In this document: positions 2,345-57,307 of the stretch, in pieces
How the letters are laid out: every line of letters begins with the position of its first letter
Numbering within the stretch: the stretch's first letter is position 1
Source of the DNA: Chloroflexota bacterium
GTDB taxonomy: Bacteria > Vulcanimicrobiota > JAMCWD01
Length of the DNA: 64,000 nt
Direction: 5' to 3'
NCBI GenBank assembly: GCA_023475345.1
Contig: JAMCWD010000034.1
Span: forward strand, 7,691-71,690
The notes under the pieces: model-generated
Seen by the model: only the letters and a program-made list of their open reading frames with translations
Database searches by the model: none
Told to the model about the DNA's origin: nothing
Position numbers and translations under genes: made by a program

Positions 2345-3349
2345 TTATTCTACCGGGCGGATACCGGGTTCTCCTGAACCGGCAGGAGCTTTTTCATCTA
2401 CCGGCCTTATACCTGTCCTGAAGTGATGTCTTATCTCTTCCAGTTTAGGCTCAAGGATCTTTAACGCCTCCCGTGCGGCGGCTTTTACTTCACCTGAAGG
2501 TTCATCAGAAATCAATTTGCTCATGGATTTAAGTTTCTGGATTGCGGCTGTGAAATGACTGTAGTGTTCTATTTCGAATTTTGTCGGGATGATATTTTCC
2601 CCAATCCGCCTCAGTGCCTCTGCCACTGCACTGCGTACAATGAAGTCTCCATCCCCCAGGGCATTAACCAGGGGACCAACTGCACGGAGATCTCCCAACC
2701 GCTCCAGCGCCTCTGCTGCAGCCTTGCGTACAACGAAGTCTCGATCCCCCAGGACATTAACCAGGGGTTCAACGGCACGAAGATCTCCCAACCGCTCCAG
2801 CGCCTCTGCCGCGGCCTTGCGTACAACGAAGTCTCCATCCTCCAGGACATTAACCAGTGGTTCAACGGCACGGAGATCTCCCAACCGCCCCAATGCCTCT
2901 GCCGCAGCATGGCGTGTACCGGGGTATTCATTCCCCAGAGCCTCGATCAGTGGTTCAACGGCACGGAGATCTCCCAACCGCTCCAGCGCCTCTGCTGCAG
3001 CCTTGCGTACAACGAAGTCTCCATCTCCCAGGGCATTAACCAGTGGTTCAACGGCACGGGGATCTCCCAACCGCCCCAATGCCTCTGCCACAGCCTTGCG
3101 TACAACGAAGTCTCCATCTCCCAGAGCCTTAATCAGTGGTTCAACGGCACGGGGATCTCCCAACCGCTCCAGCGCCTCTGCCGCAGCACTGCGTACATAC
3201 TTGCTCCTATCCCCCAAGGCCTTAATCAGGAGATCCACGGCACTGGGATCTCCTAACCGTCCCAGTGCCCCTGCCGCCGCCCAGCGCTCTCTCCAGTCCG
3301 ACGATCCGATATCTTCTCCGAGTTCTTCTATCAGGTTTTCCAGGCTCAT
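2345..3349 (-). CDS. HEAT-repeat (PBS-lyase HEAT-like) protein
   Basis: About nine consecutive 31-aa units VRKAAAEALERLGD.RAVEPL(I/V)(K/N)ALGD.DF. The start is placed at MSLENL (ATG 3347-3349), preceded by GAGAGG. The ORF track extends to 3373. Confidence 0.8.
   Translation of the reverse strand: MSLENLIEELGEDIGSSDWRERWAAAGALGRLGDPSAVDLLIKALGDRSKYVRSAAAEALERLGDPRAVEPLIKALGDGDFVVRKAVAEALGRLGDPRAVEPLVNALGDGDFVVRKAAAEALERLGDLRAVEPLIEALGNEYPGTRHAAAEALGRLGDLRAVEPLVNVLEDGDFVVRKAAAEALERLGDLRAVEPLVNVLGDRDFVVRKAAAEALERLGDLRAVGPLVNALGDGDFIVRSAVAEALRRIGENIIPTKFEIEHYSHFTAAIQKLKSMSKLISDEPSGEVKAAAREALKILEPKLEEIRHHFRTGIRPVDEKAPAGSGEPGIRPVE
2600..3250. repeat. Seven tandem 93-bp units (coding repeats of the HEAT gene)
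   Basis: The unit boundary motif tcccaacc recurs at 2693, 2786, 2879, 2972, 3065 and 3158, an exact 93-nt period. The units starting at 2693 and 2972 differ at about 6 of 93 positions by eye. Confidence 0.85.
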
Positions 3350-11362: not shown

Positions 11363-11462
11363 GAAAGTTTTTTTCCCGGTCATACAAGAAAACGTAACTT
11401 GATTACAACACCGCCCGATAAAACAATGTTTTCTATCGGGCAGCAGCGTGTAAAAATAAAGC

Positions 11463-12602
11463 CTAACTTGCCCAGAGCAAAAGCTGGAACCCGGCCTGTT
11501 CGTCCATGAAAGCTTTCCCGTTCAGAAGAATATAAGGTCTTGCTCTCCCGACGATTACACCCATTTTTTTCAAATCTTCCAGGCGGTGGATGCGTCCCTC
11601 TTCCCGTTCTTTCAATATCCGCAAAGCTGAAACCGGGCCTATACCAGGGACGCGGAGCAGATCGCTTTTTTCAGCCTTATTTATTTCCACGGGGAACCTG
11701 GCCGGGTTTGCATCGGCCCAGGTCTGCTTGGGGTCGGACTCAAGTGTAAGGTTGTTTTCGGGCGCAAAAAGCAGCTCTTCAAATTTGAACCCGTATTTTC
11801 TAAAAAGGAAATCCGCCTGGTAAAGCCTGTGTTCCCTTATGAGAGGTACCCCTGTCATCCCCTCCCAGAGCCTGCCGGACGGAGGCTGAAAAGCACTGAA
11901 ATATACCCGGCTCAAATTTGCTTCCCTGTAAAGCTGCCACGTGCGGCCCAGGATCTGCCTGTCTGTCTCGCCTGCCGCTCCCACCACGAACTGTGTCGTC
12001 TGATCGCATGACGGCGTTTCGATTTTATCCTGAAGGTTCTTCACCCATGCTATGGGACGGAGTATCTGGGAAAGGAGATCTTTTTCCCCGGCGACCCTGG
12101 CAAGCGTCTCCGACGTAGGACACTCGACATTTATCGAAACCCTCGTTGCAAGCGACACGGCACGCTCAACAAGATCAAAAGGGACGCCCGGAAGGATCTT
12201 GAGATGGATGTAGCCTCTATATTTATGGCGCAGCCGCAAAAATTCGACGGCCTTCAACATCCTCTCCATCGTCTTTGGAGCGGTATCGGGGATTGCAGAC
12301 GTCAGAAAAAGCCCGGAGACAAGACCCCTGTTTTTGAGATCGAGAAATACCCGCACGAGCTCTTCGGGCGTAAAGCTATAGCGGGGCCTTTTGTTGCTCC
12401 GCCTGTTGATGCAGTAGATACAATCGCGGGAGCAGGCATCGGTCAGCAGGACTTTGAAAAGAAAAACACTCTTTCCCGAAGGCAGGGCCGCCGGGTAAAT
12501 CCAGCGGTACGGGCTTTCTTTCGTTCGGTTGGTCCCGGGACCGCAAGCGCACGAAAGGTCGAACCGCGCACCCTCGGTTAATATGTTCAGCCTTTTCTCC
12601 AT
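11463..12602 (-). CDS. Putative DNA modification/repair radical SAM protein with a C-terminal helix-hairpin-helix
   Basis: CSRDCIYC (a CX3CX2C cluster motif) and C-terminal LLRVPGIGPVSALRILKER (HhH). Confidence 0.7.
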   Translation of the reverse strand: MEKRLNILTEGARFDLSCACGPGTNRTKESPYRWIYPAALPSGKSVFLFKVLLTDACSRDCIYCINRRSNKRPRYSFTPEELVRVFLDLKNRGLVSGLFLTSAIPDTAPKTMERMLKAVEFLRLRHKYRGYIHLKILPGVPFDLVERAVSLATRVSINVECPTSETLARVAGEKDLLSQILRPIAWVKNLQDKIETPSCDQTTQFVVGAAGETDRQILGRTWQLYREANLSRVYFSAFQPPSGRLWEGMTGVPLIREHRLYQADFLFRKYGFKFEELLFAPENNLTLESDPKQTWADANPARFPVEINKAEKSDLLRVPGIGPVSALRILKEREEGRIHRLEDLKKMGVIVGRARPYILLNGKAFMDEQAGFQLLLWAS

Positions 12603-24288: not shown

Positions 24289-24851
24289 GATTATTCGTCG
24301 CCGTTCAATTAGATGACCATGTTCGGCGGCACCTGGAGCAGTTACAGGAAAAGCTCCGCCCGGGTTGTTCTTTCGTAAGGTGGGTAAGGCCCGAATCCAT
24401 TCACCTTACACTTAAATTCCTGGGCGAAGCGGAAGAAGAAAAACTGAAATCTATTCTAAATGCGTTGGCTCCCTTAAAAGATAACCATTCTCCTTTTACT
24501 CTGGAATTTGAAAATACAGGCGCCTTTCCCTCTATTTCCAGGCCCAGTGTCATATGGTTCGGTGTAAAGAATAAACCCGAACTTATCAGGCTGCAGCAGG
24601 AAGTGGATAAAAGGCTGGAGAAAATAGGCTTTCCCAGGGAGGATCGTAAATTTAAGCCTCACCTGACACTGGGGCGGCTGAAAGATCCGAAAAGCCCCGG
24701 CTCTTTGCCAGGTCTTATCGGAGAAGCATGTGACTATCCCGGAATTTCCCAGGAGATAGGTTCTTTTGCCCTGATGCAAAGCAATATCATGCCCGGAGGG
24801 GCCAGGTACACCTGCCTGGAAAAATATATTTTGGAAGAGAGGGAGACCTGA
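24285..24851 (+). CDS. thpR: RNA 2',3'-cyclic phosphodiesterase (2H family, LigT/ThpR)
   Basis: Two HxT motifs: [10 protein letters not shown] and PHLTLGRL. Confidence 0.85.
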
Positions 24852-25915
24852 TGGATAAGAAAAAAGCCCTTGATATGGCGATAGCCCAGATCGAAAAGCA
24901 GTTCGGTAAGGGCTCGATAATGAAGCTTGGAGAGGCCGGAGCGAAGATGGACATCCCGACAATACCCACCGGCTCTTTATCGCTGGATATGGCGCTGGGT
25001 ATCGGCGGGATCCCCAGAGGCAGGGTAACCGAGGTGTTCGGCCCGGAGGCTTCCGGCAAGACAACGCTTGCATTACAGATCCTGGCCGAGGCGCAGAAAA
25101 AGGGCGGCATAGCGGCGTTCATCGATGTCGAACATGCGCTTGACCCGGCTTATGCAGCGGCGCTGGGTGTGGATATTGAAAACCTGTATATATCACAGCC
25201 GGATACGGGAGAGCAGGCCCTGGAGATCCTCGAATCGATGGTCCGCAGCAACGCGATAGATATAGCCGTGGTCGATTCAGTCGCCGCGCTCGTCCCGCGC
25301 GCCGAGATAGAAGGCGATATGGGAGACGCCCACATGGGGCTCCAGGCAAGGCTGATGAGTCAGGCGCTCAGGAAGCTTACCGCGATTATCAGCAAGTCGA
25401 AAACCTCCGCGCTTTTCATAAACCAGGTCCGCAACAAGATAGGCGTCATGTTCGGCAATCCCGAAGTTACGCCGGGCGGCCGGGCGCTGAAATTTTACTC
25501 TACAATACGCCTCGAGGTGAGAAAAGCCGATTCCATTAAATCAGGCAGCGAGATAATCGGGACCAGGGTCCGGGTCAAGGTCGTAAAGAACAAGCTTGCC
25601 GCGCCTTTCCGCCAGGCCGAATTCGATATCATCTTCGGCAAGGGGATTTCCAGCGAGGGCGATGTCCTTGACCTCGCGGTCACTGCCGGGCTTGTTACAA
25701 AGAGCGGTACATGGTTTATTTATGGCGAAACAAAGCTCGGTCAGGGAAGAGAAAACGCCCGCAAGTTCCTCGAAGATAACCCGAAAGTTATGGATGAGTT
25801 GGAGACAAAACTTCGCGAATCGCACGGCGGCTTTATGCTCCCGACAAAATTAGAGACGGAAGAAGAAACTGAAGAAGAGGGAGCCGAAGGAGAACTGGAG
25901 CTCCAGCTGGAATAA
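24851..25915 (+). CDS. recA: Recombinase RecA
   Basis: [47 protein letters not shown]. Confidence 0.97.
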
Positions 25916-28609: not shown

Positions 28610-30010
28610 ATGGGAAGAATTTTTATAAAGAACGCGGATTTTATTATAACGATGGATGACGCCGGGAGCGTCCTGAAAAATGAAAGCATACTTATCGACG
28701 GCAATAAAATAGCCGATACAGGCGCATCCCTCAAGTCTTCACCCGGTGATGAGGTGATCGATGCCGCCGGTTGTGTAGTCATGCCGGGGATGGTGAACAC
28801 GCACCATCACCTGTATCAGACGATGAACAGGAACGTGCCGCGCGTTGCGGATTACGAGCTTTTCGACTGGCTTACCACGCTTTACGAGATCTGGAGAGAG
28901 TTGGATCCCGAATGGGTCAGGATAAGCACCCTTGTCGGGCTGGGAGAACTCCTCTTGACCGGTTGTACCCTTTCAACGGATATGTTTTATGTTTTCCCCA
29001 GGTCTGCGCCGCCTGATATTTTCGATTACGAAGTAGAGGCAGGCAAAAAGATAGGCATAAGGTTCCATCCCTGCAGGGGGAGCATGTCCAGGGGGAAGAG
29101 CCAGGGCGGCCTCCCGCCTGATGACGTGGTCCAGACAGAGGAAGAGATCTTTTCAGACTGCGAAAGGGTCATAAAAAAATACCACGACCCCTCCCCTTTC
29201 TCGATGTGCAGGATAGCGCTGGGGCCGTGTTCCCCGTTTTCGGTAACCGCCGAATTGATAAGGGAGACGGTGCGGTTCGCAAGGAAACATGGGGTTCTTT
29301 CCCATACCCACCTTGCCGAGACGAAAGACGAAGAAGAATACTGCCTGAAAGTTTATAAGAATCGGCCGTTCCATTTCATGCGTGACCTGGAGTGGGAAGG
29401 CGAAGATGTCTGGCTTGCCCATTGCATTTATCTCGACGAAGAAGAAATCCGGCTTATGGGGGAAACGCGCACAGGAGTTGCTCACTGCCCGGTATCGAAT
29501 ATGAGGCTCGGTTCCGGAGTGGCCCCTGTCCCCCAATTGATAAAGGCCGGGGCAAAAGTCAGCCTGGCGGTTGACGGGTCGGCGAGCAACGATTCTTCCG
29601 ACATGTGGGGAGAGGCCAGGAACTGCCTCCTGGTCCATCGCCTGAAAGGCGGGGCAAAAGCCATAACATCGGAACAGGTGCTGCGCCTTGCTACAAGAGG
29701 CGGGGCCGAAGTCCTGGGCTGGGACGAAATCGGCACACTTGAAAAAGGGAAGGCTGCGGATCTCGTGGTTATCGACTTGAAGAAGATCGGGTTTGCAGGC
29801 GGTCTTTTCGAGCCGGTGGGAGCGCTTCTTTTGACCGGCGATTCTCATATCGTCGATTATAATATCGTTAACGGCAATATCGTCGTCAGGAACGGGAAGC
29901 TGGTTAATGTAAACGAGGAAGAGCTGGTTGAACAGGCGAAAGAGCTTTCTTTTAAAAAGCTGGAAAAGGCCGGGAGAAAAACCGGCATCAATTATTTCCG
30001 TAAGGGATGA
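28610..30010 (+). CDS. Amidohydrolase superfamily deaminase (8-oxoguanine deaminase / AtzB-like subgroup)
   Basis: MPGMVNTHHHLYQT metal-binding motif, HLAET, VAHCP.SNMRLGSG, LAVDGSASND. Confidence 0.6.
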   Translation: MGRIFIKNADFIITMDDAGSVLKNESILIDGNKIADTGASLKSSPGDEVIDAAGCVVMPGMVNTHHHLYQTMNRNVPRVADYELFDWLTTLYEIWRELDPEWVRISTLVGLGELLLTGCTLSTDMFYVFPRSAPPDIFDYEVEAGKKIGIRFHPCRGSMSRGKSQGGLPPDDVVQTEEEIFSDCERVIKKYHDPSPFSMCRIALGPCSPFSVTAELIRETVRFARKHGVLSHTHLAETKDEEEYCLKVYKNRPFHFMRDLEWEGEDVWLAHCIYLDEEEIRLMGETRTGVAHCPVSNMRLGSGVAPVPQLIKAGAKVSLAVDGSASNDSSDMWGEARNCLLVHRLKGGAKAITSEQVLRLATRGGAEVLGWDEIGTLEKGKAADLVVIDLKKIGFAGGLFEPVGALLLTGDSHIVDYNIVNGNIVVRNGKLVNVNEEELVEQAKELSFKKLEKAGRKTGINYFRKG

Positions 30011-30016
30011 AAAGAA

Positions 30017-30400
30017 ATGAAAGAAGAAAACGCATTCGAACAGGCCCTGAAAATTCTGCATAACCAGGTCAACAAGATGTCGCCTTTTGAAAAAGCGGCG
30101 TTGTTGCTGGGCTCGCTGCCGCCGGAGATCATGATAGAAGCTTCCATGGAATTTTCAGAGATAGATATAAAGATGATCCTGCCGGAGATAGCCAGGGTTT
30201 TCGATAATTTTTCAATTGAAGTGGATGCGGTAATCGACGAGTTTCTCAGGCTCCACGGCCTCTGGCCGATGATGGAGCAGAAAGGCATGGAGACCGAGCT
30301 TCTCAGCGCCCGTTTTACATACTGGGCGAGAAGAAACCCACGCAGGCTGGGGTGCCTGCTGAAAGCCTCATGGCTTATGGAATACAGGGACAATGATTGA
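30017..30400 (+). CDS. Small protein resembling a FliG N-terminal / MgtE_N-type helical domain
   Basis: SPFEKAALLLGSLPPEIMIEASMEFSEIDIKMILPEIARV.......VDAVIDEFLRL follows the KAA.LL..L.PE....v...l...E......EIA........V..EF pattern of FliG_N. Confidence 0.4.
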   Translation: MKEENAFEQALKILHNQVNKMSPFEKAALLLGSLPPEIMIEASMEFSEIDIKMILPEIARVFDNFSIEVDAVIDEFLRLHGLWPMMEQKGMETELLSARFTYWARRNPRRLGCLLKASWLMEYRDND

Positions 30401-32132
30401 GAGGAGAAAAGAGATTATGGACGAGAAGACGCTTGCCGAACTCATCAGGGTAGCAAAAGGCGACGAGCCCGCGGAGATTGTTTTGAAGGGCGGCAAGGTG
30501 GCCGACCTTGCAGGAATGAGGTTCGTCGAGGGCGACGTGGCAATACACCGGGGCTTGATCATGGGCATCGGCGACTATAAAGGCATAGAGGAAGTCGATG
30601 TTTCGGGCAAGGTGATAACTCCCGGCTTCATGGATTCCCATGTCCACATAGAAAGCAGCATGGTAAGCCCGATCCAGTTTGCAAAGGCCGTAGTCCCGCT
30701 GGGCACGACGACGGTCGTTGCCGACCCGCACGAGATAACCAATGTCTGCGGCCTTAACGGGTTCCGCTACATGCTTTCCGCAGGCGGCGCCGTACCTCTC
30801 GATATAAATTTAATGGTGCCTTCATGCGTCCCGGCGACACACATGGAAACTTCCGGCGCAGACCTTGAAGCGTCCGATCTTCTTTCCGTAAAGAACGATA
30901 AGGGAGTGCTCGGCCTTGCGGAGATGATGAACTATCCCGGCGTGCTGTTCCAGGATCCCGGGGTGCTGAACAAGCTCCTCGATTTTTACGACAGGCCGAT
31001 TGACGGCCATGCGCCGATGCTTTCCGGCAATGACTTGAACGCTTACAGGCTGGCAGGCCCGTCGTCCGAGCATGAAAGCACAACCGCCGAAGAAGCCCTG
31101 GCAAAACTGAAAGCGGGCATGCAGATATTCGTCCGGGAAGGCTCCGTAACAAGGGACCTGGAGTCTCTGCTTCCGGCCATAAACCTGCTCAATTTCAGGT
31201 TCTTCTCCTTCGCAACGGATGACCGCGAGCCGGTGGATCTCATAGAAGAAGGTCATATCAATTTCCTCCTGAGAAAGGCCGTCAGGCTTGGGCTTGATCC
31301 CATAGTCGCAATTTCTATGGCATGCTACAACTCGATCCCGCATTACCGGTTCATAAGGCGGGGCCTGATAGCGCCGGGGTTCCGGGCGGATGTGGTCGTA
31401 CTCAATGACACTGTGGATTTCATCCCGTACCAGGTTTACGTGGAAGGAAAGCTTGTAGCGCAAAATGGGCAGGCACTGTTCACGCCCGGCTCCATTGACG
31501 ATTCGAAAGTTTTGAACACGGTAAATATCGGCGATATCTCGCCCGACAAATTGAAAGTGAAATCCGACGGCGGGGATATCCGCGTCATGGAGATAATACC
31601 GAACCAGATAGTAACGAAAGCTTTAACTCTTGCCCCGAAGGTGGTTGACGGTGAAGCCGTATCCGATACGGAGCGCGATATTTTGAAGGTTGCCGTTGTC
31701 GAGAGGCACAAGGCGACCGGTAATGTAGGCGTGGGTTTCGTCCGCGGCTTCGGCTTGAAGAAAGGCGCGGTGTCGTCAACCGTGGCGCACGACTCGCATA
31801 ACCTCATCATTATCGGCACTAACGACGATGATATGATGACGCTGATCAAGCATACAGTTCAGATGCAGGGGGGACAGGCGGTAGCCTGCAACGGCAAGGT
31901 CCTGGCGGATCTGCCCCTTGCAATCGGGGGGCTGATGTCAACCGAGCCCCTGCCCGCAGTCAAAGACAGGCTGGAAAAGATGTTCGCCGCAGCAGGAGAA
32001 CTCGGCTCGGCGCTTCACAGCCCGTTTATGGCGATGGCTTTCCTGGCGCTTCCGGTGGTCCCGGAATTGAAAATCACCGACGAGGGATATGTTGACGTTA
32101 CGAAGTTTGAGCGCGTTCCTGTCGGTGTATAA
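30393..32132 (+). CDS. ade: Adenine deaminase
   Basis: PGFMDSHVHIESSM, DPHEI.NV, TDDR, AHDSHNLI. An alternative start is MDEK at 30417. Confidence 0.85.
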   Translation: MIERRKEIMDEKTLAELIRVAKGDEPAEIVLKGGKVADLAGMRFVEGDVAIHRGLIMGIGDYKGIEEVDVSGKVITPGFMDSHVHIESSMVSPIQFAKAVVPLGTTTVVADPHEITNVCGLNGFRYMLSAGGAVPLDINLMVPSCVPATHMETSGADLEASDLLSVKNDKGVLGLAEMMNYPGVLFQDPGVLNKLLDFYDRPIDGHAPMLSGNDLNAYRLAGPSSEHESTTAEEALAKLKAGMQIFVREGSVTRDLESLLPAINLLNFRFFSFATDDREPVDLIEEGHINFLLRKAVRLGLDPIVAISMACYNSIPHYRFIRRGLIAPGFRADVVVLNDTVDFIPYQVYVEGKLVAQNGQALFTPGSIDDSKVLNTVNIGDISPDKLKVKSDGGDIRVMEIIPNQIVTKALTLAPKVVDGEAVSDTERDILKVAVVERHKATGNVGVGFVRGFGLKKGAVSSTVAHDSHNLIIIGTNDDDMMTLIKHTVQMQGGQAVACNGKVLADLPLAIGGLMSTEPLPAVKDRLEKMFAAAGELGSALHSPFMAMAFLALPVVPELKITDEGYVDVTKFERVPVGV

Positions 32133-42252: not shown

Positions 42253-42492
42253 TTATTCCGACGCCCACTTTTTAACCTGTGATTTAAGAGCGGCGGACAC
42301 CTGTTCCTTGATATAATCCTTTTTCTCTTCGCTCAATTGCTCGAATATGTAAAACATTATTCCTGCAATAAGCCCGCCTAAAAGAGACACTAGGAAAACT
42401 TTCCCTGCGCCGGCACAACATTCACTGACAGTTTTTTCTTCAATTTCATCAGGTTTTGCAACGATGGATTTCTTTTCAATCTCTTCCGTCAT
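42253..42492 (-). CDS. Small single-pass membrane protein (YtxH-like architecture)
   Basis: One central TM segment (FLVSLLGGLIAGIMFYIF) flanked by K/E-rich helices. Confidence 0.35.
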   Translation of the reverse strand: MTEEIEKKSIVAKPDEIEEKTVSECCAGAGKVFLVSLLGGLIAGIMFYIFEQLSEEKKDYIKEQVSAALKSQVKKWASE

Positions 42493-42830
42493 AATAAAGG
42501 TCTCCTTCCATCAAATTTATATTTAAGCCTGTCCGGGTAAGATTCACGAAGGTTTTCCAGGCCGTAAAATAATGACTTTAAAATGGGAATAGCCGATATT
42601 TCCTGCTCCGGCGTCAGCTTGCGTTTCAATTTTAATTTAATATTGCCCGGCCGGATATCGAGGCTGGAAATGCAATTCAACTTTTCCAGGGAAAGAGCTG
42701 CATTTTGAATTAGAACAGATGCGGCTGCGCAGGCCAGATCTTTTCCATGAGGAGCGGTTCCCAGATGCCCGCGGGCTTCTATAGATAATAACCTTCTCCT
42801 GGCATTACTCCTCAGTCTGAGGTTCAGCAT
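42489..42830 (-). CDS. prp: Ribosomal-processing cysteine protease Prp
   Basis: GH...AP.GKDLACAAASVL (His/Cys dyad pattern). Sits directly after rplU. Confidence 0.75.
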   Translation of the reverse strand: MLNLRLRSNARRRLLSIEARGHLGTAPHGKDLACAAASVLIQNAALSLEKLNCISSLDIRPGNIKLKLKRKLTPEQEISAIPILKSLFYGLENLRESYPDRLKYKFDGRRPLL

Positions 42831-43413
42831 CTTTCTTTTTCGCTTTTGCTTTCGGAGCGTCCTTCACGGCTTTTTCTTTCTTGACTTTTGCCGCTGCGGG
42901 TTTTTTCGTTTTTGCAGTCGTCTTCTTTTCCGCCGCAGGTTTCGCCTTGGCTTTTGCCGTCCCGGCCTTGCCCGCTGTTTTTTTAGCGGCTCCGGATTTG
43001 CCGGCCTTTTCAGGTTCGGCACCGGTTTCAGCGGCTGCTTTTTTCTCCACCTTCGGTTTTTCAATCTTTTCTCTTACAGGCTTGACGCCTTTGATGCCGC
43101 TTGCCTCTATCGACTCGATCTCAACGAGAGTATAGGGCTGGCGATGGCCGCGCTTGACATGGTAACGCTTGCGGCGCTTGTATTTGAATACGGTAACTTT
43201 GCGCTCCCTGCTTTGAGAAAGTATCGTAGCTTTGACTTGTGCATCCTGGATGTAAGGCGCGCCGGGCTTCAACTCCTGGTTGTCGCCCACTACCATGAGA
43301 ACACGGTTCAGAATTACTTCGTCGCCTTTTTTGCCTTCTACTTTTTCAATCTTTACTTGATCTCCGGGGCTTACTTTATACTGTTTTCCCCCAGTTTCCA
43401 TAACAGCGTACAT
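42805..43413 (-). CDS. rplU: 50S ribosomal protein L21 with a lysine/alanine-rich C-terminal extension of about 100 aa
   Basis: MYAVMETGGKQYKV..GD...EK. A GGAGG RBS precedes the ATG at 43411-43413. Residues 104-202 are KA-rich. Confidence 0.9.
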   Translation of the reverse strand: MYAVMETGGKQYKVSPGDQVKIEKVEGKKGDEVILNRVLMVVGDNQELKPGAPYIQDAQVKATILSQSRERKVTVFKYKRRKRYHVKRGHRQPYTLVEIESIEASGIKGVKPVREKIEKPKVEKKAAAETGAEPEKAGKSGAAKKTAGKAGTAKAKAKPAAEKKTTAKTKKPAAAKVKKEKAVKDAPKAKAKKKDAEPQTEE

Positions 43414-43509
43414 GGGAGTTCCCTCCTTATAAGATAACAAGGAACATAATATCAAAACGCCCGTTCCTTTGTCAAGAAAATATTGACGCTCTTTTATTTA
43501 TTTATGCTA

Positions 43510-48214: not shown

Positions 48215-48961
48215 CTACCGGCCGAATTCTTTCATGAACCTCGATGCGGAAAAAGGACGGCCTATGATCCCGGCCAGATAAGATGAAAGTATTTCATCGA
48301 GATTTTCCATGTTCTCCCGTTCCATGGATTCGCCCGTCATAGAGCCGGAGCCGGCTTTTAAAAACCTGTTATAAAGCGATCTTGCGCCTGCCGTAAAATG
48401 CTCCATGTTTTTTTCCCGGATTGAGCACATATCGCAAACCGCACCGCCGAGCCTCGATGAAAAATTCTCCGATGTCTCCACGGAGCCTTCACAAACCACA
48501 CAATGCCCAAGCTCCGGCTGGTAGCCCGAAACCCAGATCAGCTTTATCTCACAACCCCTGCATACTATTTCAGGATCAACTCCCCGTTGAATTGCGGCAA
48601 GGCCTTTGCGGAGCAGGTTATACTGAGAGGCCGAGTTTTCCTGGAACGGCGTGAACGCTTCGAAAAGCTCGAGGAGATAAGCCGACGCGAACAGGCTCTT
48701 GAGATCGCGCCTTATGTGAGGAAAGAATTCGATCACCTGGACCTGTGTCAATATATCCAGGTTTTTGCCGCGTGCCACAAGGCCCCTGATCCTGGTGGAC
48801 GGCTCGAGTTTGCCCATGAAAGAGCTTTTGAGCCTGCGGGAACCTCTTGCGACGGCATGGATACGGCCGATATCGGGAGAAAGCAAAGTAATAATCTTAT
48901 CAAACTCGCCGAGAGGACGAGTACGAAGAATTATACCTTCCGCCTTGTAAAGGGCGGGCAT
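48215..48961 (-). CDS. recO: DNA repair protein RecO
   Basis: An N-terminal OB-fold pattern (AEGIILRTRPLGEFDKIITLLS...G...AVARG) and the zinc motif C..C......FS...GG..C..C. Confidence 0.8.
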   Translation of the reverse strand: MPALYKAEGIILRTRPLGEFDKIITLLSPDIGRIHAVARGSRRLKSSFMGKLEPSTRIRGLVARGKNLDILTQVQVIEFFPHIRRDLKSLFASAYLLELFEAFTPFQENSASQYNLLRKGLAAIQRGVDPEIVCRGCEIKLIWVSGYQPELGHCVVCEGSVETSENFSSRLGGAVCDMCSIREKNMEHFTAGARSLYNRFLKAGSGSMTGESMERENMENLDEILSSYLAGIIGRPFSASRFMKEFGR

Positions 48962-48962
48962 A

Positions 48963-50327
48963 TCAATAGGCGGAGGTTCCCGCCTCTCCTTTCACTATCG
49001 CAACGCTTGCGGATGCGCCTATCCTGGTTGCCCCGGCTTTAATCATCTGCTGTGCGGTTTCGAAATCCCGGATCCCGCCGGAGGCCTTGACTCCCATGTA
49101 TTTGCCGACGGTCTTTCTCATCAGGGCTATATCATGGACTGTAGCGCCGCCGCCGCCGAAACCCGTCGATGTCTTGACGAAATCCGCGCCGGCCTGCTTG
49201 GAAAGCTCACAACCTTTTATTTTTTCTTCGTCTGTTAAAAGTGAAGTCTCGAGTATGACCTTCAGGATCTTACCCCTGCACGCATCGCGGACAGCTTTTA
49301 TATCTTCCAGGGCCAGGTCGTAATTGCCGGCCTTGAGAGCGCCGACATTAATAACCATGTCTATTTCTTCAGCACCGTTGGCTATAGCGTCGCGGGTTTC
49401 CATCGCCTTCGCTACGGATGTAGTCGCGCCCAGCGGGAAGCCGATAACAGTGCAGACTTTGACCACGGTGCCTTTCAGCGCATCGGCGCAAAGCTTAACA
49501 TAGCCGGGATTGATACAGACCGAGGCGAATTTATATTTCCTTGCCTCCTCGCAGAGCTTCAATACCTGTTCCCTTGTAGCATCAGGCTTGAGGAGGGTGT
49601 GGTCGATAGTCCCGGCGATTTTCGCAGCGCTTTCGCCCCCGCCAAGTGTTGCGGAAAGCCTGTCTGCGCCTGCATCTATGACGGCGTCAACTTTCTCCGT
49701 CGCAAGGTAAGTACAATGGCCGCATCCCAGGCATTCGCCCCCGCTTGCCAGGCTGCAGACCCCGCCTTCGGAAGCTGCGGCAGGCTTGCCGTATTTTGGC
49801 TCTGCGACAAGATCCTTAAACAATATGCAGAGAGCCGAAAGCTCCTTTACAAGGGCCTCTTCCTTTTTCTTGAGCGCGCCGGATTTGACGTTGTAGCATT
49901 TAACGGCCATCACGGAGAACCCGCGGTCAAGCGCCTCGATAAGATAGGCCATAATCCTGGCGTCCCCCAGGAGGTTGGCCAGCCTCGACAGGCCGCCGAT
50001 GCACATCACGGGATAATAGATCTCCGTTCCGGGAGCAAGCACGCTCAGCCCGCCTGCAAGGTTGGGGTGTACGGCTTCAAATCCCGGAGGCAGCGAAACG
50101 TCTGCGATGGTGATCACTTTGCCGGTACAACCCTGTGACGAAAGCCAGTCGAAAACCGAAGCGGCGGTTCCCGGCGATTCATCCAGGAGAACGATCACAT
50201 TTTTCAGTTTGCCGGGTGCAGGCGATGAGCCTGTTCCTGCCGCCGATGCCTGGGCCGGGAGGCTCTTCGAATTCATGCCTTCGATAACTTCCCGGGTTAC
50301 TTTTTCGATAAGTTCTTGTAATTCCAC
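48963..50327 (-). CDS. deoC: Deoxyribose-phosphate aldolase fused to an N-terminal encapsulation-peptide-like helix, a PduM-like domain and a four-Cys motif
   Basis: C-terminal 220 aa: [18 protein letters not shown], and KVILETS...[10 protein letters not shown] (Schiff-base Lys region), which is DeoC. N-terminus: [18 protein letters not shown]. Residues 40-175 parallel the protein at 52603-53352. C191-X7-C-X2-C-X2-C205. GTG start after an AGAGGTGG RBS. Confidence 0.85.
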
Positions 50328-50353
50328 AGGGATCCACCTCTTATTCAGGTACT

Positions 50354-50806
50354 TTATTTTTTGAGATATTTTTCCTCAATCTGGATAATTTTATTGACGC
50401 GCCGGGAGTGCCTCCCCCCGGCGAAGCTGGTTCCAAGCCATTTCTTGGCTATTTCTTTTGCCAGCCCCGGCCCGGTTATCATGCTCCCCAGGGTCAAAAC
50501 ATTCGCATCGTTATGTTCCCGGCTGTTGCCCGCGGCATAGGTATCGTAACATGCCGCGGCCCGTATCCCCGGGACCTTGTTTGCCGCCATCGCAGACCCC
50601 ATGCCTGCGCCGTCGATTACTATCCCGACAAAATCGCCGTCTTCGCTGACCTTCTGGGCGACAAGGAGGGCTATATCGGGATAATCTACGGCATCTTTCG
50701 AATAAGTGCCATAATCGAGCACGTTGTGCCCTTCGCCTTCAAGGAAGGCTTTTAATATTTCCTTGAGATCAAATCCGCCGTGATCGCTTCCGATTACGAT
50801 ATTCAT
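50354..50806 (-). CDS. rpiB: Ribose-5-phosphate isomerase B / sugar-phosphate isomerase (RpiB/LacAB family)
   Basis: [45 protein letters not shown]. The start is the ATG at 50804-50806 after a GGGAGA RBS. Confidence 0.88.
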
Positions 50807-50821
50807 AATCAATCTCCCGGT

Positions 50822-51121
50822 TTAACTGTCATACCTGCTGTATGGTTCCCCGTTTTTAGGAAACAATTTTTCGATATCGGGATGAGGCCTGGGTATAATA
50901 TGAGCGGCTATCAATTCACCGATAACCCGTGCCCTTTCAGCGCCCGCTTCGACTGCGGCGCTCACCGCGCCTACATCTCCCCTGACGAAAATAGTAACGT
51001 AAGCCGCGCCTATTTTTTCTTCACCTATACAAACAACCTGTGCCGTCTTGACCATGGCATCGGCCGCTTCTATTGCGGCACTCTGTCCGAGAGTTTCAAT
51101 CATTCCGAGGGCTTCTTCCAC
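50822..51121 (-). CDS. BMC-H shell protein (Pfam00936-type hexamer subunit)
   Basis: [25 protein letters not shown]......[25 protein letters not shown]...A.....[10 protein letters not shown]. Confidence 0.9.
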
Positions 51122-51153
51122 GATCCCGCCTCCTTCGATCTTTATTTATTTGC

Positions 51154-52575
51154 CTATATTATCCTGAAATAATCTACAAGAACACAACGCCTGCTCCTTG
51201 TAAAGGAGCGCGCGGACGTAAGACCTTCGCCCGTCGGGCTTGCGATTGTAAGTGTGGTATAACCTTCTCCGCCATAGCCCAGACCCGCGACTGAAGGCCC
51301 GTTCTTCACGAATATCGACGTCTTAATCCGTTGGGCCATGCGGCTGAGACTTTCTACATTCTTCGAATGCATCATCGCCGAATGATAATTGCCGTGCTCC
51401 ACCCTGACCGCCATATCGATGGCTTCGTTGACATCCCTGACCCGCACCATCGGCAGAACCGGCATAAGCTGCTCCAGTTGGACAAGCGGGTGATCCTCGC
51501 TCACCTCGCAGAAGAGAAGGCGGATATCCGAGGGAAGATCCAGCCCTATAGCTTTTGCAAGCACCTGTGCCGTGCGCCCGATATAATCCTTGTTCATCGA
51601 AGCTGAACAGCCCGGGCCGCCTGGCTTTACCACTACCCTGACAAGCTCTTCCACCTGGTGTGAGGTCAACTCGTAAGCGCCGGATATCTTCATAAATCTT
51701 CTCAGTTCGTTTATGACGCTTTCCACCACTATAAGAATTTTCTCGGCGGTACAGAGGACGTTGTTATCGAATGACGCTCCGAAAATAATATCCGAGGCGG
51801 CTTTTTTAATATCGGCGGTCTCGTCCACCACCACCGGGGGATTGCCCGGCCCTGCGGCGATGACTTTCTTGCCCGATCTCATGGCAAGATGAACGACCTC
51901 TTCGCCGCCGGTAACGACAAGGATCCTTATGCCGGGGTGTTTCATGATATACTGGCCGCTCTGGAGCGTCGGCTTTGCAAGGCTTGTAAGCAGGTTCGGG
52001 GGGCCTCCCGCCTTCATAATACCTTCATTGATAATTTCAACAGCCCTGTTGGATACCTGTGCGGCCGTGGGATGAGGATGGAAGACGACGGCATTGCCTG
52101 CGGATACCATGCCTATGGAGTTGTTAATAACGGTGGCCGCAGGGTTTGTCGAAGGAGTGATTGAGCCGATGACGCCGTAAGGGGCCATCTCGACGAGAGT
52201 CAGGCCGCGGTCGCCTGTAAAGACCACAGAATCAAGGTCTTCAACGCCGGGGGTTTTCTGGGCCGCCAGGATATTTTTCTGGAGCTTATCGGAGGCTCTC
52301 CCCATGCCGGTTTCTGCGACTCCCAGGTCGGCAAGCTCCTGTGCATGAGAAAGCGCCGCTTCCCTCATGGCCTGAACCAGTTCTTTCCGCTTCTCAAGCG
52401 AAAGCGCGCTTAAAGTTTCATGCGCCGCTTTTGCCGCATCTACCGCGGAATCAAGGTCCTGGTAAATGCCGAGCTTCGGCGACTGCAACTCCAGCGTTTC
52501 CAGAGCGGAGCTTCTCACGAACTTCTTCACCACTTCTTCAACTATACTTGCAACTCTGGTCCTGTCAATTTCCAT
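51154..52575 (-). CDS. CoA-acylating aldehyde dehydrogenase (PduP/EutE-like) with an N-terminal encapsulation-peptide-like helix
   Basis: ALDH-family body with the catalytic region FDNNVLCTAEK. N-terminus: MEIDRTRVASIVEEVVKKFV. Confidence 0.85.
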   Translation of the reverse strand: MEIDRTRVASIVEEVVKKFVRSSALETLELQSPKLGIYQDLDSAVDAAKAAHETLSALSLEKRKELVQAMREAALSHAQELADLGVAETGMGRASDKLQKNILAAQKTPGVEDLDSVVFTGDRGLTLVEMAPYGVIGSITPSTNPAATVINNSIGMVSAGNAVVFHPHPTAAQVSNRAVEIINEGIMKAGGPPNLLTSLAKPTLQSGQYIMKHPGIRILVVTGGEEVVHLAMRSGKKVIAAGPGNPPVVVDETADIKKAASDIIFGASFDNNVLCTAEKILIVVESVINELRRFMKISGAYELTSHQVEELVRVVVKPGGPGCSASMNKDYIGRTAQVLAKAIGLDLPSDIRLLFCEVSEDHPLVQLEQLMPVLPMVRVRDVNEAIDMAVRVEHGNYHSAMMHSKNVESLSRMAQRIKTSIFVKNGPSVAGLGYGGEGYTTLTIASPTGEGLTSARSFTRSRRCVLVDYFRII

Positions 52576-52602
52576 CTAATACCCCTTTCCGGGTAATCCC
52601 CA

Positions 52603-53352
52603 TCAATAAAAAATCAATGCTATCCCGTTTTCGTCACACAGGTCGCGGGCAAGAGGAGTAATTATGCTCCCCATCGGCATCCTGATATCTTTGCCGCCCG
52701 CATCCATTAATTTCAGGACATCCTCCCGCGTCAATACACTTCTTCCGGCGGAAGCGTTTACGGCTCCCGCACCGCCTTTCAACTGTTCCGAAAGCGAGTT
52801 TACTTCCAGCGGGATAACCTTGAACGAAGCAAGCGTCCTGAGGTGTCCGGCCACCGTTTCCAGGAAACCCCTGGGAAGGTAAGCCGAAAGCCTGTTCATA
52901 TCGCTCAGTTCCGCAAGATCTACCAGGAGCGGCTTCTGTTTCCTGAGTCCCATTAAAAGCGCATCGCTTACCCGGTCGCCCCCGGTGAGAGTCGCAGCCC
53001 TTGCCAGGCACTCCAGTGTGAAAAACGGGAAAAGCAAAAAATCACCGCTTTCCACGAGGGGGGCAAGAGGCGTTTCCGGATCATGGGCTCGGAATGGAAC
53101 TCCCGGCAGAAACCTTGCCAGATCCTGCTTCTGGGCGGGATGAGATACCAGGAAATTATGTTGTATCCCATCAAGTGTGCCCAGGCTTTTCCAGAAAGGA
53201 GCCTCCTCCTGCATTTCGTGCGGGAGGAGGATTACCGTGCTTTTCTGCTTTTTGGAAGGATCCGGGGGTTCTCCGGCCGGGGTGCTATCCAGGGCGGACA
53301 GACGTTCCATCACTTCCCTGGTGATCACCTCCACCAGAGGCTCCAAATTCAT
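52603..53352 (-). CDS. PduM-like microcompartment-associated protein
   Basis: N-terminus MNLEPLVEVITREVMERL. The C-terminal VLTREDVLKLMDAGGKDIRMPMGSIITPLARDLCDENGI resembles the PduM C-terminus (...V..A.ARD.A....I) as I recall it. Confidence 0.5.
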   Translation of the reverse strand: MNLEPLVEVITREVMERLSALDSTPAGEPPDPSKKQKSTVILLPHEMQEEAPFWKSLGTLDGIQHNFLVSHPAQKQDLARFLPGVPFRAHDPETPLAPLVESGDFLLFPFFTLECLARAATLTGGDRVSDALLMGLRKQKPLLVDLAELSDMNRLSAYLPRGFLETVAGHLRTLASFKVIPLEVNSLSEQLKGGAGAVNASAGRSVLTREDVLKLMDAGGKDIRMPMGSIITPLARDLCDENGIALIFY

Positions 53353-53377
53353 AATATCGCCTTCCAGACTTTAAACG

Positions 53378-53677
53378 TTACTTCTTTTCCTTGGGCGCAG
53401 CGATGGGAAGAACCTCGTCAAGGTCTCTGTGAGGTCTCGGTATAACGTGGACCGCTACAAGTTCTCCCACTTTGCGGGCCGCAGCAGCGCCTGCGTCGGT
53501 GGCGGCGCGGACAGCGGCTACATCGCCGCGGACCAGTGATGTTACATAACCCGCGCCGATTTTCTCGTAACCGATCATTTTTACGTTGGCAGCCTTGACC
53601 ATAGCATCCGATGCTTCGATCATAGCCACCAGGCCCTTGGTTTCTATCATGCCCAGGGCTTCATAGGTACTTATCAT
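53378..53677 (-). CDS. BMC-H shell protein (PduA/EutM-like)
   Basis: [56 protein letters not shown]...[16 protein letters not shown]. Confidence 0.92.
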
Positions 53678-53746
53678 TCCTTTTCTCCTCCTGTATTAAT
53701 TCCTGGTATTATTCGCATGACTCAAAAGTTTTCCTTCCCCGGCTCA

Positions 53747-54415
53747 TTATATTATCAATTCGCCCGTCATGCCGGGTTTGAGAGCGCATGCGTTGGCCTC
53801 GTCAAAATCAATGTGCATCTCAAGCCTGAAACCCTCGTGTACCCTTACAAGCACTTCCTCGAATATTACTCCTCTATCCCCGCCGATTCTTACTTTAACC
53901 ACCTGGCGATCCTTTACGCCGAATTTCTCCGCATCGCCGGGCGTCATGTGAACATGCCTCCTGGCAATAACCAGCCCGTCCGGCAGAATTACCGTCCCAC
54001 CGGGACCTACAATTGTAATACCGGCGGTTCCTTCAAGATCGCCGGATTCACGCACCGGCGGCACATCAATCCCCAGGGCATGGCAATCGGTAACGGATAC
54101 TTCCACCTGGCTCTTTTTGCGGACAGGCCCCAGGACACGGACATCATTCAAAGCGCCGCCTTTCCCTGCGACAGTTACCGTCTCTACACAGGCAAACTGC
54201 CCGGGCTGGCTCAAATCTTTCATCGGGGTCAGGTTATATCCTGCCCCGAATAAGGCTTCCAGGTCGGCCCGGCTCAGATGAATATGGCAGTTGGATGCCG
54301 CGATCGGTATCCCGCCTTTCGAGCTTTCACAGTGCGTCATGCCGCCCTGTGTCTCGCGGCCAAGCCGGGACAGCACTTCCCTTACAATTTCTTTAACTAT
54401 TTCCGTATTTTCCAT
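53747..54415 (-). CDS. pduL: PduL-type phosphate acyltransferase with an N-terminal encapsulation-peptide-like helix
   Basis: Two PduL repeats (IPIAASNCHIHLSRADLEALFG... and RRHVHMTPGDAEKFG...). N-terminus: MENTEIVKEIVREVLSRL. Confidence 0.85.
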   Translation of the reverse strand: MENTEIVKEIVREVLSRLGRETQGGMTHCESSKGGIPIAASNCHIHLSRADLEALFGAGYNLTPMKDLSQPGQFACVETVTVAGKGGALNDVRVLGPVRKKSQVEVSVTDCHALGIDVPPVRESGDLEGTAGITIVGPGGTVILPDGLVIARRHVHMTPGDAEKFGVKDRQVVKVRIGGDRGVIFEEVLVRVHEGFRLEMHIDFDEANACALKPGMTGELII

Positions 54416-56803: not shown

Positions 56804-57046
56804 GCTGCTATGTTATCAGAATGAAATTATCTTCACAATAAGATTCGAGCATTATATTTATAAATTTACAAATTATTTCTTGGATTAGTATATTTATACT
56901 TAATATTTTATATTATAACTAATTTGTTATAGTATTATGCATGATGACTATACGGAAACTTTCAATACTATAGCTGAATATATATTGACTGGCGTAAAAA
57001 AAAAGATTATTATTTAATTGTGGTTGGAAAGGGGGAGTGGGCCTGT
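56804..57046. promoter_or_regulatory. AT-rich divergent control region between nfo (minus) and spoVS (plus)
   Basis: A run of about 200 nt visibly far more AT-rich than all surrounding sequence. Palindrome AGTATAttTATACT (56887-56900). Inverted repeat TATAGTATT (56928-56936) / AATACTATA (56964-56972). Candidate promoter TTGACT (56985-56990), 17 nt, TATTAT (57008-57013). Confidence 0.55.
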
Positions 57047-57307
57047 ATGGATATATTAAAAGTTTCAGCAAAGTCAAATCCCAATTCGGTAGCAGGTGCC
57101 CTAGCAGGAGTTTTAAGAGAGAAAGGATCAGCCGAAATGCAGGCCATCGGGGCAGGCGCCATTAATCAGGCTGTTAAGGCGATTGCTATCGCAAGGGGGT
57201 TTGTAGCACCGAGCGGAATGGATCTTATATGCGTGCCCGCATTCACCGAAATAATTATTGACGGGGAAGAGCGAACTGCGATAAGATTACTGGTGGAACC
57301 GCGATAA
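57047..57307 (+). CDS. spoVS: SpoVS-family protein
   Basis: MDILKVSAKSNPNSVAGALAGVLREKGSAEMQAIGAGAINQAVKAIAIARGFVAPSG.DLICVPAFTEI.IDGEERTAI.L.VEPR is near-identical in pattern to SpoVS. The ATG at 57047 follows a GGGGGAG RBS. Confidence 0.9.
   Translation: MDILKVSAKSNPNSVAGALAGVLREKGSAEMQAIGAGAINQAVKAIAIARGFVAPSGMDLICVPAFTEIIIDGEERTAIRLLVEPR

Follow-up and report, generated by a model that had tools for sequence, protein, structure and literature searches.

Seven genes on the minus strand of a 64-kb stretch of metagenomic DNA (64,000 nucleotides of contig JAMCWD010000034.1, assembly GCA_023475345.1; hereafter the window) were analysed as a candidate bacterial microcompartment (BMC) operon of the sugar-phosphate-utilising (SPU) class. 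A first-pass annotation, made from the letters alone, had described them as tightly packed, with gaps of 9 to 69 nt. Both coordinates and spacing were verified: the operon consists of seven intact open reading frames (ORFs) running from 54415 to 48963, separated in gene order by 69, 25, 27, 32, 9 (or 15) and 26 nt. From 5' to 3' they encode a PduL-type phosphotransacylase (PTAC), a first hexameric shell protein (BMC-H1), an accessory protein of 249 aa (P3), an aldehyde dehydrogenase (AldDH), a second shell protein (BMC-H2), RpiB and a 454-aa fusion protein with the domain of deoxyribose-5-phosphate aldolase (DERA). The features are as follows.

53747 to 54415, minus strand: PduL-type phosphotransacylase, 222 aa (PF06130, E 1.9e-76; NF011652, 264 bits; GenBank MCL5037023.1)
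53378 to 53677, minus strand: BMC-H1 shell hexamer protein, 99 aa (PF00936, E 5e-29; EutM model 146 bits, cut-off 133)
52603 to 53352, minus strand: P3 accessory protein, 249 aa, eut_hyp (TIGR02536)-like (no Pfam match; family profile and fold)
51154 to 52575, minus strand: CoA-acylating AldDH of the EutE/PduP type, 473 aa (NF011927, 672 bits, cut-off 403)
50822 to 51121, minus strand: BMC-H2 shell hexamer protein, 99 aa (PF00936, E 9e-26)
50354 to 50806 (ATG start) or to 50812 (TTG start), minus strand: RpiB-family protein, 150 aa (PF02502, E 3e-53)
48963 to 50327, minus strand: DERA fusion, 454 aa, whole (TIGR00126, E 5.6e-88, aa 238-445 only)
49622 to 50327, minus strand: N-terminal 235 aa of the DERA fusion (paralogy with P3 by hhalign; AlphaFold2 model)
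48963 to 49621, minus strand: catalytic TIM barrel of the DERA fusion, aa 236-454 plus stop codon (TIGR00126, E 5.6e-88)

Pfam and NCBIfam allow an unambiguous assignment of six of the seven proteins, P3 being the exception. PduL matches PF06130 with 256 bits (cut-off 25) over profile positions 1-176 of 176 and is thus full-length. The two 99-aa proteins, already taken for BMC-H in the first-pass annotation, each consist of one BMC domain that PF00936 matches once and over the full length (E 5e-29 and 9e-26). The AldDH had been called acylating from its catalytic motif, and this is borne out: the motif FDNNVLCTAEK is present, NF011927 scores 672 bits, the next-best models are all acylating (the AdhE N-terminus and TIGR02518) and the non-acylating families reach at most 95 bits. 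Of the families proposed for the seven proteins, PF00936, PF06130, the AldDH, PF02502 and DERA were found, whereas PF15953 and PF03319 gave no match. The core expected of a metabolosome (PF00936 shell, acylating AldDH, PduL) is in place, and DERA and RpiB add the signature pair of the SPU class.

Four of the putative cargo proteins have similar amphipathic N-termini. The N-terminus of PduL (MENTEIVKEIVREVLSRL) resembles an encapsulation peptide (EP), and in the alignment P3 (MNLEPLVEVITREVMERL), the EP-like AldDH (MEIDRTRVASIVEEVVKKF) and DERA start alike, with a common (L/I)(V/I)E..(T/V)REV-like motif. In the predicted models each of the four begins with a helix that is followed by a disordered linker. 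RpiB has no N-terminal EP; with only 9-15 nt to the upstream gene there is no room for one.

We consider it likely that the seven genes are the core of an SPU-type metabolosome that is closest to the subtype SPU4, with the following pathway and assembly. Deoxyribose-5-phosphate (dR5P) from DNA breakdown would enter a shell whose tiles are the two BMC-H proteins, where DERA would split it to glyceraldehyde-3-phosphate, which would leave the shell, and acetaldehyde. The EutE-type AldDH would oxidize acetaldehyde to acetyl-CoA with reduction of NAD+ to NADH, and PduL would convert acetyl-CoA to acetyl-phosphate, thereby recycling CoA. The amphipathic helices of PduL, P3, AldDH and DERA would recruit the cargo, RpiB would most likely be bound to DERA as a non-catalytic partner, and P3 and the N-terminal domain of DERA would most likely form an oligomerising scaffold that nucleates the enzyme core. 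A four-cysteine motif in DERA probably holds a metal or an Fe-S cluster. For the pathway we infer substrate and encapsulation from the family assignments and the published SPU model (PMC11585597, PMC8217296). The chemistry of the first-pass annotation, from dR5P to acetaldehyde plus glyceraldehyde-3-phosphate and on to acetyl-CoA and acetyl-phosphate, is that of the published model, and the catalytic residues of DERA are kept.

Relatives were sought in genomes, metagenomes and a contig index. The same architecture was found in at least five other places: L001 (a 'Bacillota' metagenome-assembled genome, MAG), L004 (a Vulcanimicrobiota MAG), L098 (GCA_029216075.1), the P0077 contig and L088 (a 189-kb JGI contig). 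These five come from Eremiobacterota-like MAGs and from metagenome contigs. The architecture is partially present in L002, L003 and L081-L087. The common order is PduL, BMC-H, P3, AldDH, [PduS, BMC-T], BMC-H, RpiB, long DERA and recO-ruvX-mltG, where PduS and BMC-T are present in L001, L004, L098 and the P0077 contig and absent from the window copy and L088. In L001 and L098 the BMC-T is a tandem protein of 182-186 aa. Directly after DERA comes recO in L001-L004, L098 and the P0077 contig; in L088 the gene is found about 2.5 kb downstream. BMC-H1 is 88-96% identical to its orthologues in the related loci, while P3 of the same loci shares just 25-60% identity; this difference argues for strong, purifying selection on a functional shell.

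In L088 (8115-9182) and L085 (3619-5013) a gene for a membrane protein of the PMT_2 family (dolichyl-phosphate-mannose mannosyltransferase-like) stands directly after the AldDH gene. There it occupies the position that PduS and BMC-T hold in other related loci. In L001 the BMC operon lies between era (2388-3290) and recO (11429-12172). Since era and recO are usually adjacent in bacteria, their separation suggests an insertion of the operon into a conserved cluster of housekeeping genes in this lineage.

In the DERA domain the residues D102, K167 and K201 of the E. coli enzyme align with D323, K385 and K414, so that the catalytic residues are kept, and the domain is 70-79% identical to those of the closest related SPU-type loci (L001-L013, L088, L089). 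The N-terminal extension was modelled with AlphaFold2, for which the homologue input was taken from database sequences. In the model an EP helix (aa 3-20, nt 50268-50321) is followed by a disordered linker, a P3-like alpha/beta domain with a flavoprotein fold (aa 42-172, nt 49812-50204), a poorly modelled cysteine-rich stretch between this domain and the TIM barrel, and, after the cysteine motif, a short helix-strand segment before the barrel. When the profile of the P3 family was compared by hhalign with the N-termini of long DERAs, the two aligned over 231 columns with a probability of 99.6% and an E-value of 1e-24. Judged by this alignment, the N-terminal 235 aa of DERA are a paralogue of P3. 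Both the P3 of the window and this N-terminus fail to match PF02441 (Flavoprotein), which several long DERAs do match, including that of L005 (E 2.8e-9).

Among the aligned long-form DERAs conservation of the flavoprotein-like domain is weak (mean top-residue frequency 0.32-0.35), and the domain contains no conserved Gly-rich cofactor loop, whereas the EP, the cysteine motif and the DERA domain are well conserved. The fold family forms trimers and dodecamers. Because of these three properties a scaffold role appears most likely for this domain and for P3.

The cysteine motif reads C191-x7-C199-x2-C202-x2-C205 (nt 49713-49757). Across 66 long-form DERAs, C191, C199 and C205 never vary, and conservation of C202 is 95%. 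At least two cysteines were found in 46 of the 53 short and in all nine long extensions of BMC-type DERAs (9/9), but in none of 16 unextended DERAs (0/16), so that a Cys-rich segment generally characterises the extensions of BMC-type DERAs. In the paper that characterised SPU enzymes (Dwyer 2024, PMC11585597) the main text does not discuss it. A metal or an Fe-S cluster is the probable ligand of the four-cysteine motif.

Metagenomes contain many long-form DERAs (430-540 aa), and at least 65 relatives were found with the full-length query. The N-terminal 240 aa alone returned no homologues in a word-indexed protein search; as the full-length query did find relatives, this null is an artefact of sensitivity. 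At least one flavoprotein-DERA fusion stands alone: L097 (10001-11419 on a 7.6-Mb ENA contig) is surrounded by uncharacterised genes and has no shell or AldDH gene within 10 kb. The protein collection contains no identical entry for the 454-aa DERA of the window, which starts with GTG at 50327. Evidently the deposited annotation uses another start, which would cut off the encapsulation helix. The GTG start is supported, since it restores an N-terminal helix that is homologous to those of related DERAs, and the same problem of start annotation has been described for SPU DERAs (Dwyer 2024, PMC11585597).

RpiB had been proposed to make the pentose phosphate that the aldolase cleaves, which is unlikely. 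In the alignment with E. coli RpiB the catalytic C66 corresponds to D65 and H99 to H98, and Thr68 is replaced by Ala. All 19 BMC-linked RpiBs of the fetched loci (19/19) carry Asp at the position of Cys66, and the same exchange was reported for all SPU ribose-5-phosphate isomerases (RPIs; Dwyer 2024, PMC11585597). In that study the RPI of SPU6 had negligible activity as ribose-5-phosphate (R5P) isomerase and formed complexes with DERA, while the SPU6 DERA was active on dR5P. Because of the Cys66-to-Asp change and the inactive SPU6 RPI, RpiB is probably, by analogy, a non-catalytic partner of DERA and not the supplier of its substrate. The opposite case is that RpiB is an active isomerase making the substrate of the aldolase (a pentose or another sugar phosphate) in the shell, so that the compartment handles something besides or instead of dR5P. 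In its favour RpiB retains H98, R132, R136 and the D8/H9 pair, the specificities of the family are broad, with a carboxylate base used by RpiB of M. tuberculosis (discussion in PMC11585597), and the pairing of RpiB with DERA is conserved in related loci. Set against this are the loss of Cys66 and Thr68 and the negligible activity of an SPU6 RPI with the same substitution; moreover, R5P or ribulose-5-phosphate has no pathway link to DERA without transketolase. An isomerase role is thus improbable, and a non-catalytic RpiB is preferred. Together with the reconstitution of SPU-type shells from Hodarchaeales in a 2025 preprint (PMC12747264), the purification and assay of the SPU6 DERA and RPI in 2024 (PMC11585597) make the first-pass statement that no SPU system had been characterised experimentally outdated.

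P3 had been labelled 'PduM-like', and this label has to be withdrawn. PF15953 (PduM) does not match P3 at E<=10, while PduM of Salmonella scored E 1e-47 in the same search, and hhalign of P3 against PduM is limited to 39 C-terminal columns with a probability of 15%. On both grounds membership of P3 in the PduM family was rejected. Instead, P3 probably groups with TIGR02536/eut_hyp proteins of the flavoprotein fold. In its AlphaFold2 model (pLDDT 89.8) an EP helix (aa 4-22, nt 53287-53343) precedes a Rossmann-like alpha/beta domain with a flavoprotein fold (aa 37-192, nt 52777-53244); towards the C-terminus lies a small, conserved alpha/beta domain (aa 205-248, nt 52609-52740). Foldseek ranks dodecameric UbiX/HFCD flavoproteins highest (E about 5e-5, TM about 0.5). 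An exhaustive HMMER search of 1.8 billion proteins yielded 73 representatives, so the family is small. TIGR02536 matches 46 of 48 aligned members below its cut-off (best E 8e-18), and the match to P3 of the window is weak (E 3.9e-4, 20 bits, cut-off 152.6). PF02441 matches five of the 48 relatives and the PduM models (TIGR04493) match seven of them weakly; P3 itself has no Pfam match at all. On the basis of profile and model, P3 is probably a TIGR02536/eut_hyp-like protein with a UbiX/HFCD-type flavoprotein fold and an EP, of the kind listed in the catalogue for SPU4.

Axen 2014 established the SPU class, and Sutter 2021 (PMC8217296) extended it to seven subtypes. SPU4 (Sutter 2021, Supplementary Data 2), which occurs mostly in Bacillales and Clostridiales, shares with the window PTAC, an AldDH with N-terminal EP, RPI, DERA, two similar BMC-H and, probably, an eut_hyp (TIGR02536)/PF02441-related protein with N-terminal EP. 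Its BMC-T is inconsistent, and the PduS/T pair occurs in some loci only. It differs by a BMC-P triplet and triosephosphate isomerase (TPI) in the locus, neither of which is seen here, and the window differs in turn by the extra flavoprotein-fold domain on DERA and by a host that, according to RecA, is Eremiobacterota-like and not of the Firmicutes. No published description comes closer than that of SPU4, which already covers P3.

Other described loci resemble the window in part. In FRAG7 of Candidatus Hydrogenedentes (Sutter 2021) one site holds BMC-H, PduS-T, AldDH, PTAC and a PF02441 flavoprotein, and the BMC-P triplet is encoded separately. The first site matches the upstream half of L001, L004 and L098, whereas the window lacks PduS-T; as described, FRAG7 has neither DERA nor RPI, unlike the window. 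SPU1 (Elusimicrobia) contains the closest relatives among DERAs with a short extension, at about 70-72% identity in the catalytic domain. Its gene order is related (PduL, BMC-H, then AldDH, RpiB, DERA), and it has two BMC-H paralogues like the window. However, SPU1 carries BMC-P in the slots of P3 and of the DERA N-domain, as well as TPI, two BMC-T and a DERA extension of only about 110 aa. SPU6 of Chloroflexi bacterium GWB2_54_36, whose DERA and RPI are the sole pair of SPU enzymes to have been assayed (Dwyer, Sutter and Kerfeld 2024), shares the D/K/K residues and an N-terminal extension of DERA and the Cys66-to-Asp exchange of RPI. In contrast to the window, it has a C-terminal EP on AldDH, an RPI with its own EP and linker, no PTAC, BMC-Tdp with three BMC-P, and a DERA extension of about 70 aa. 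The Hodarchaeales SPU-type operons (2025 preprint, PMC12747264) share PTAC, AldDH and a DERA-flavoprotein fusion, called 'uncommon in BMC' by the authors, and differ by three pentamer genes, BMC-Ts with MNdh, and citrate synthase.

Each unusual feature thus has a precedent, and the combination matches no described SPU subtype; comparison with the published catalogue, as the first-pass annotation had called for, revealed no SPU subtype of identical content. What is distinctive is the co-occurrence of no nearby BMC-P, no TPI, a flavoprotein module that appears twice and an Eremiobacterota-like host. The locus is a variant within the known SPU kind and not a new system.

Several points weigh against an SPU4-like metabolosome. 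No pentamer gene was detected in the whole 64-kb window by tblastn with EutN, CcmL and PduN, and a BMC-P profile built from 35 sequences of SPU-type loci, whose positive controls score E<=1e-20, found nothing at E<10 in the six-frame translation of the window. A tblastn search with PduA returned just the two 99-aa BMC-H and no BMC-T in the window; the first-pass annotation had mentioned neither of these absences. TPI (PF00121), PduS and alcohol dehydrogenase are absent from the operon and its immediate flanks. According to both SPU papers (Sutter 2021; Dwyer 2024, PMC11585597) every SPU locus carries a BMC-P triplet, and each SPU subtype encodes at least one BMC-T(s) (Dwyer 2024, PMC11585597). 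The window copy also lacks the electron-export pair PduS/BMC-T kept by L001, L004, L098 and the P0077 contig, and the operon encodes no route for regeneration of NAD+. The substrate is assigned by homology, and complex formation between DERA and RPI, like the lack of RPI activity, was demonstrated only for the SPU6 pair, whose RPI has its own EP. From the data of the window the compartment cannot be called complete. Most likely, by analogy with FRAG7 and with SPU7, in which two of three BMC-P genes are at a satellite location (Sutter 2021, Supplementary Data 2), the vertex (BMC-P) genes are encoded elsewhere in the genome. A cryptic BMC-P in P3 or in the N-domain of DERA was rejected, as the BMC-P profile was silent at E<10 and the fold is Rossmann-like.

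Alternatively, the compartment might do without pentamers, either with a shell of BMC-H only (open-vertex, tubular or irregular) or with an oligomer of P3 or of the DERA N-domain in a structural role such as nucleation of the core or plugging of vertices. No BMC-P lies within about 10 kb of any of the six loci of this architecture (the window copy, L001, L004, L088, L098 and the P0077 contig), while SPU1-type loci from the same scans have three BMC-P each. Every fetched locus with a full-length match to the P3 family or a long-form DERA showed zero BMC-P in the DNA examined. The positions are suggestive too, as P3 lies between BMC-H and AldDH, the slot of one BMC-P in SPU1 loci, and the DERA N-domain lies between RpiB and the DERA domain, the slot of two BMC-P genes. 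On the other hand, BMC-P occurs somewhere in the genome in each of the catalogued BMC types, FRAG7, with the same gene set including the PF02441 protein, keeps its triplet at a second site, and the DNA examined was about 10 kb of flank in the related loci and 64 kb of an 82-kb contig here. Furthermore, the fold of P3 is Rossmann-like and not OB-like as in BMC-P, and SPU4 loci hold both the eut_hyp protein and the BMC-P triplet. A shell without pentamers is therefore improbable. Equally improbable is its most elaborate form, in which the Eremiobacterota-like lineage would have a pentamer-free SPU organelle with the duplicated flavoprotein-fold module (P3 and its DERA-fused copy) in the BMC-P slots as organiser of core or vertices and with a four-cysteine site that binds metal or Fe-S. 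Least probable, by a small step, is a decaying remnant that has lost PduS, BMC-T and BMC-P and forms no compartment, its enzymes, if working, being a cytosolic deoxyribose-phosphate pathway: in L001, L004, L098 and the P0077 contig, PduS and BMC-T are retained between AldDH and BMC-H2, where the window has 32 nt, but none of the seven ORFs here is disrupted and the targeting helices are present, BMC-H1 shares 94% identity with its counterpart in the nearest relative, the spacing is tight and operon-like, and a second lineage (L088, L085) is independently without PduS/T and has kept the remaining operon.

SPU compartments are among the most widespread metabolosomes, and to our knowledge none has been isolated from its native host. 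The seven-gene, 5.5-kb locus is about the smallest enzyme-complete SPU cassette seen, comprising the signature enzyme, AldDH, PTAC and two hexamers, and is therefore a practical candidate for heterologous reconstitution of the proposed SPU4-like metabolosome. It raises the questions of where the vertex protein is located or whether it is dispensable, what the flavoprotein module and the four-cysteine motif do, and how NAD+ is regenerated without PduS/BMC-T. As the pipeline of Sutter 2021 defines a main locus by BMC-H plus BMC-P, catalogues would file such loci as satellites or fragments.

Two neighbouring genes outside the compartment set served as context.

48215 to 48961, minus strand: recO, flanking gene (PF11967 and PF02565)
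24851 to 25915: recA

The recO gene starts 1 nt past the stop codon of DERA. Other neighbours are housekeeping genes (recG, plsX, fabH/D, dapA, tgt, ileS and rplU, besides recA) and sugar ABC transporters. The G+C content of the operon equals that of the rest of the window and is unremarkable. Acquisition by horizontal transfer or on a mobile element was rejected because of the normal G+C content, the housekeeping flanks and the conserved adjacency of recO. Neither Rfam families nor tRNAs were detected in the window, and the operon is not bordered by any convincing promoter or terminator.

Six of the operon proteins are deposited in GenBank as MCL5037018-23 and are exact except for BMC-H2 (MCL5037019.1, 100 aa), which is one N-terminal residue longer; PGAP named them EutM, EutE etc. 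RecA (MCL5036991.1) and RecO (MCL5037016) are exact GenBank entries as well, from a MAG labelled 'Chloroflexi bacterium', in which the contig measures 82,184 bp. The best non-self match of RecA, at 89%, is 'Candidatus Eremiobacteraeota bacterium', and the next matches, at 72-75%, are MAGs of Vulcanimicrobiota, Xenobium and 'Armatimonadetes'. Because of these RecA matches the host is most likely an Eremiobacterota-like lineage, and the NCBI label 'Chloroflexi' is doubtful and probably wrong.

Some further observations were made in the window. At 28610-32132, about 17-20 kb from the operon, a gene for an amidohydrolase adjoins one for adenine deaminase; the pair may serve the salvage or catabolism of nucleobases, a role that would suit a DNA-scavenging lifestyle. 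In the region 42253-43455 the product of rplU (L21) has a long C-terminal tail rich in Lys and Ala; the Prp protease gene comes next, and the ORF after it encodes a small membrane-like protein and not L27. A SpoVS-family gene (57020-57307), which is PF04232 in the matching Logan contig L099, adjoins a gene with a PHP domain. Proteins with HEAT, TPR and WD40 repeats are frequent across the window.

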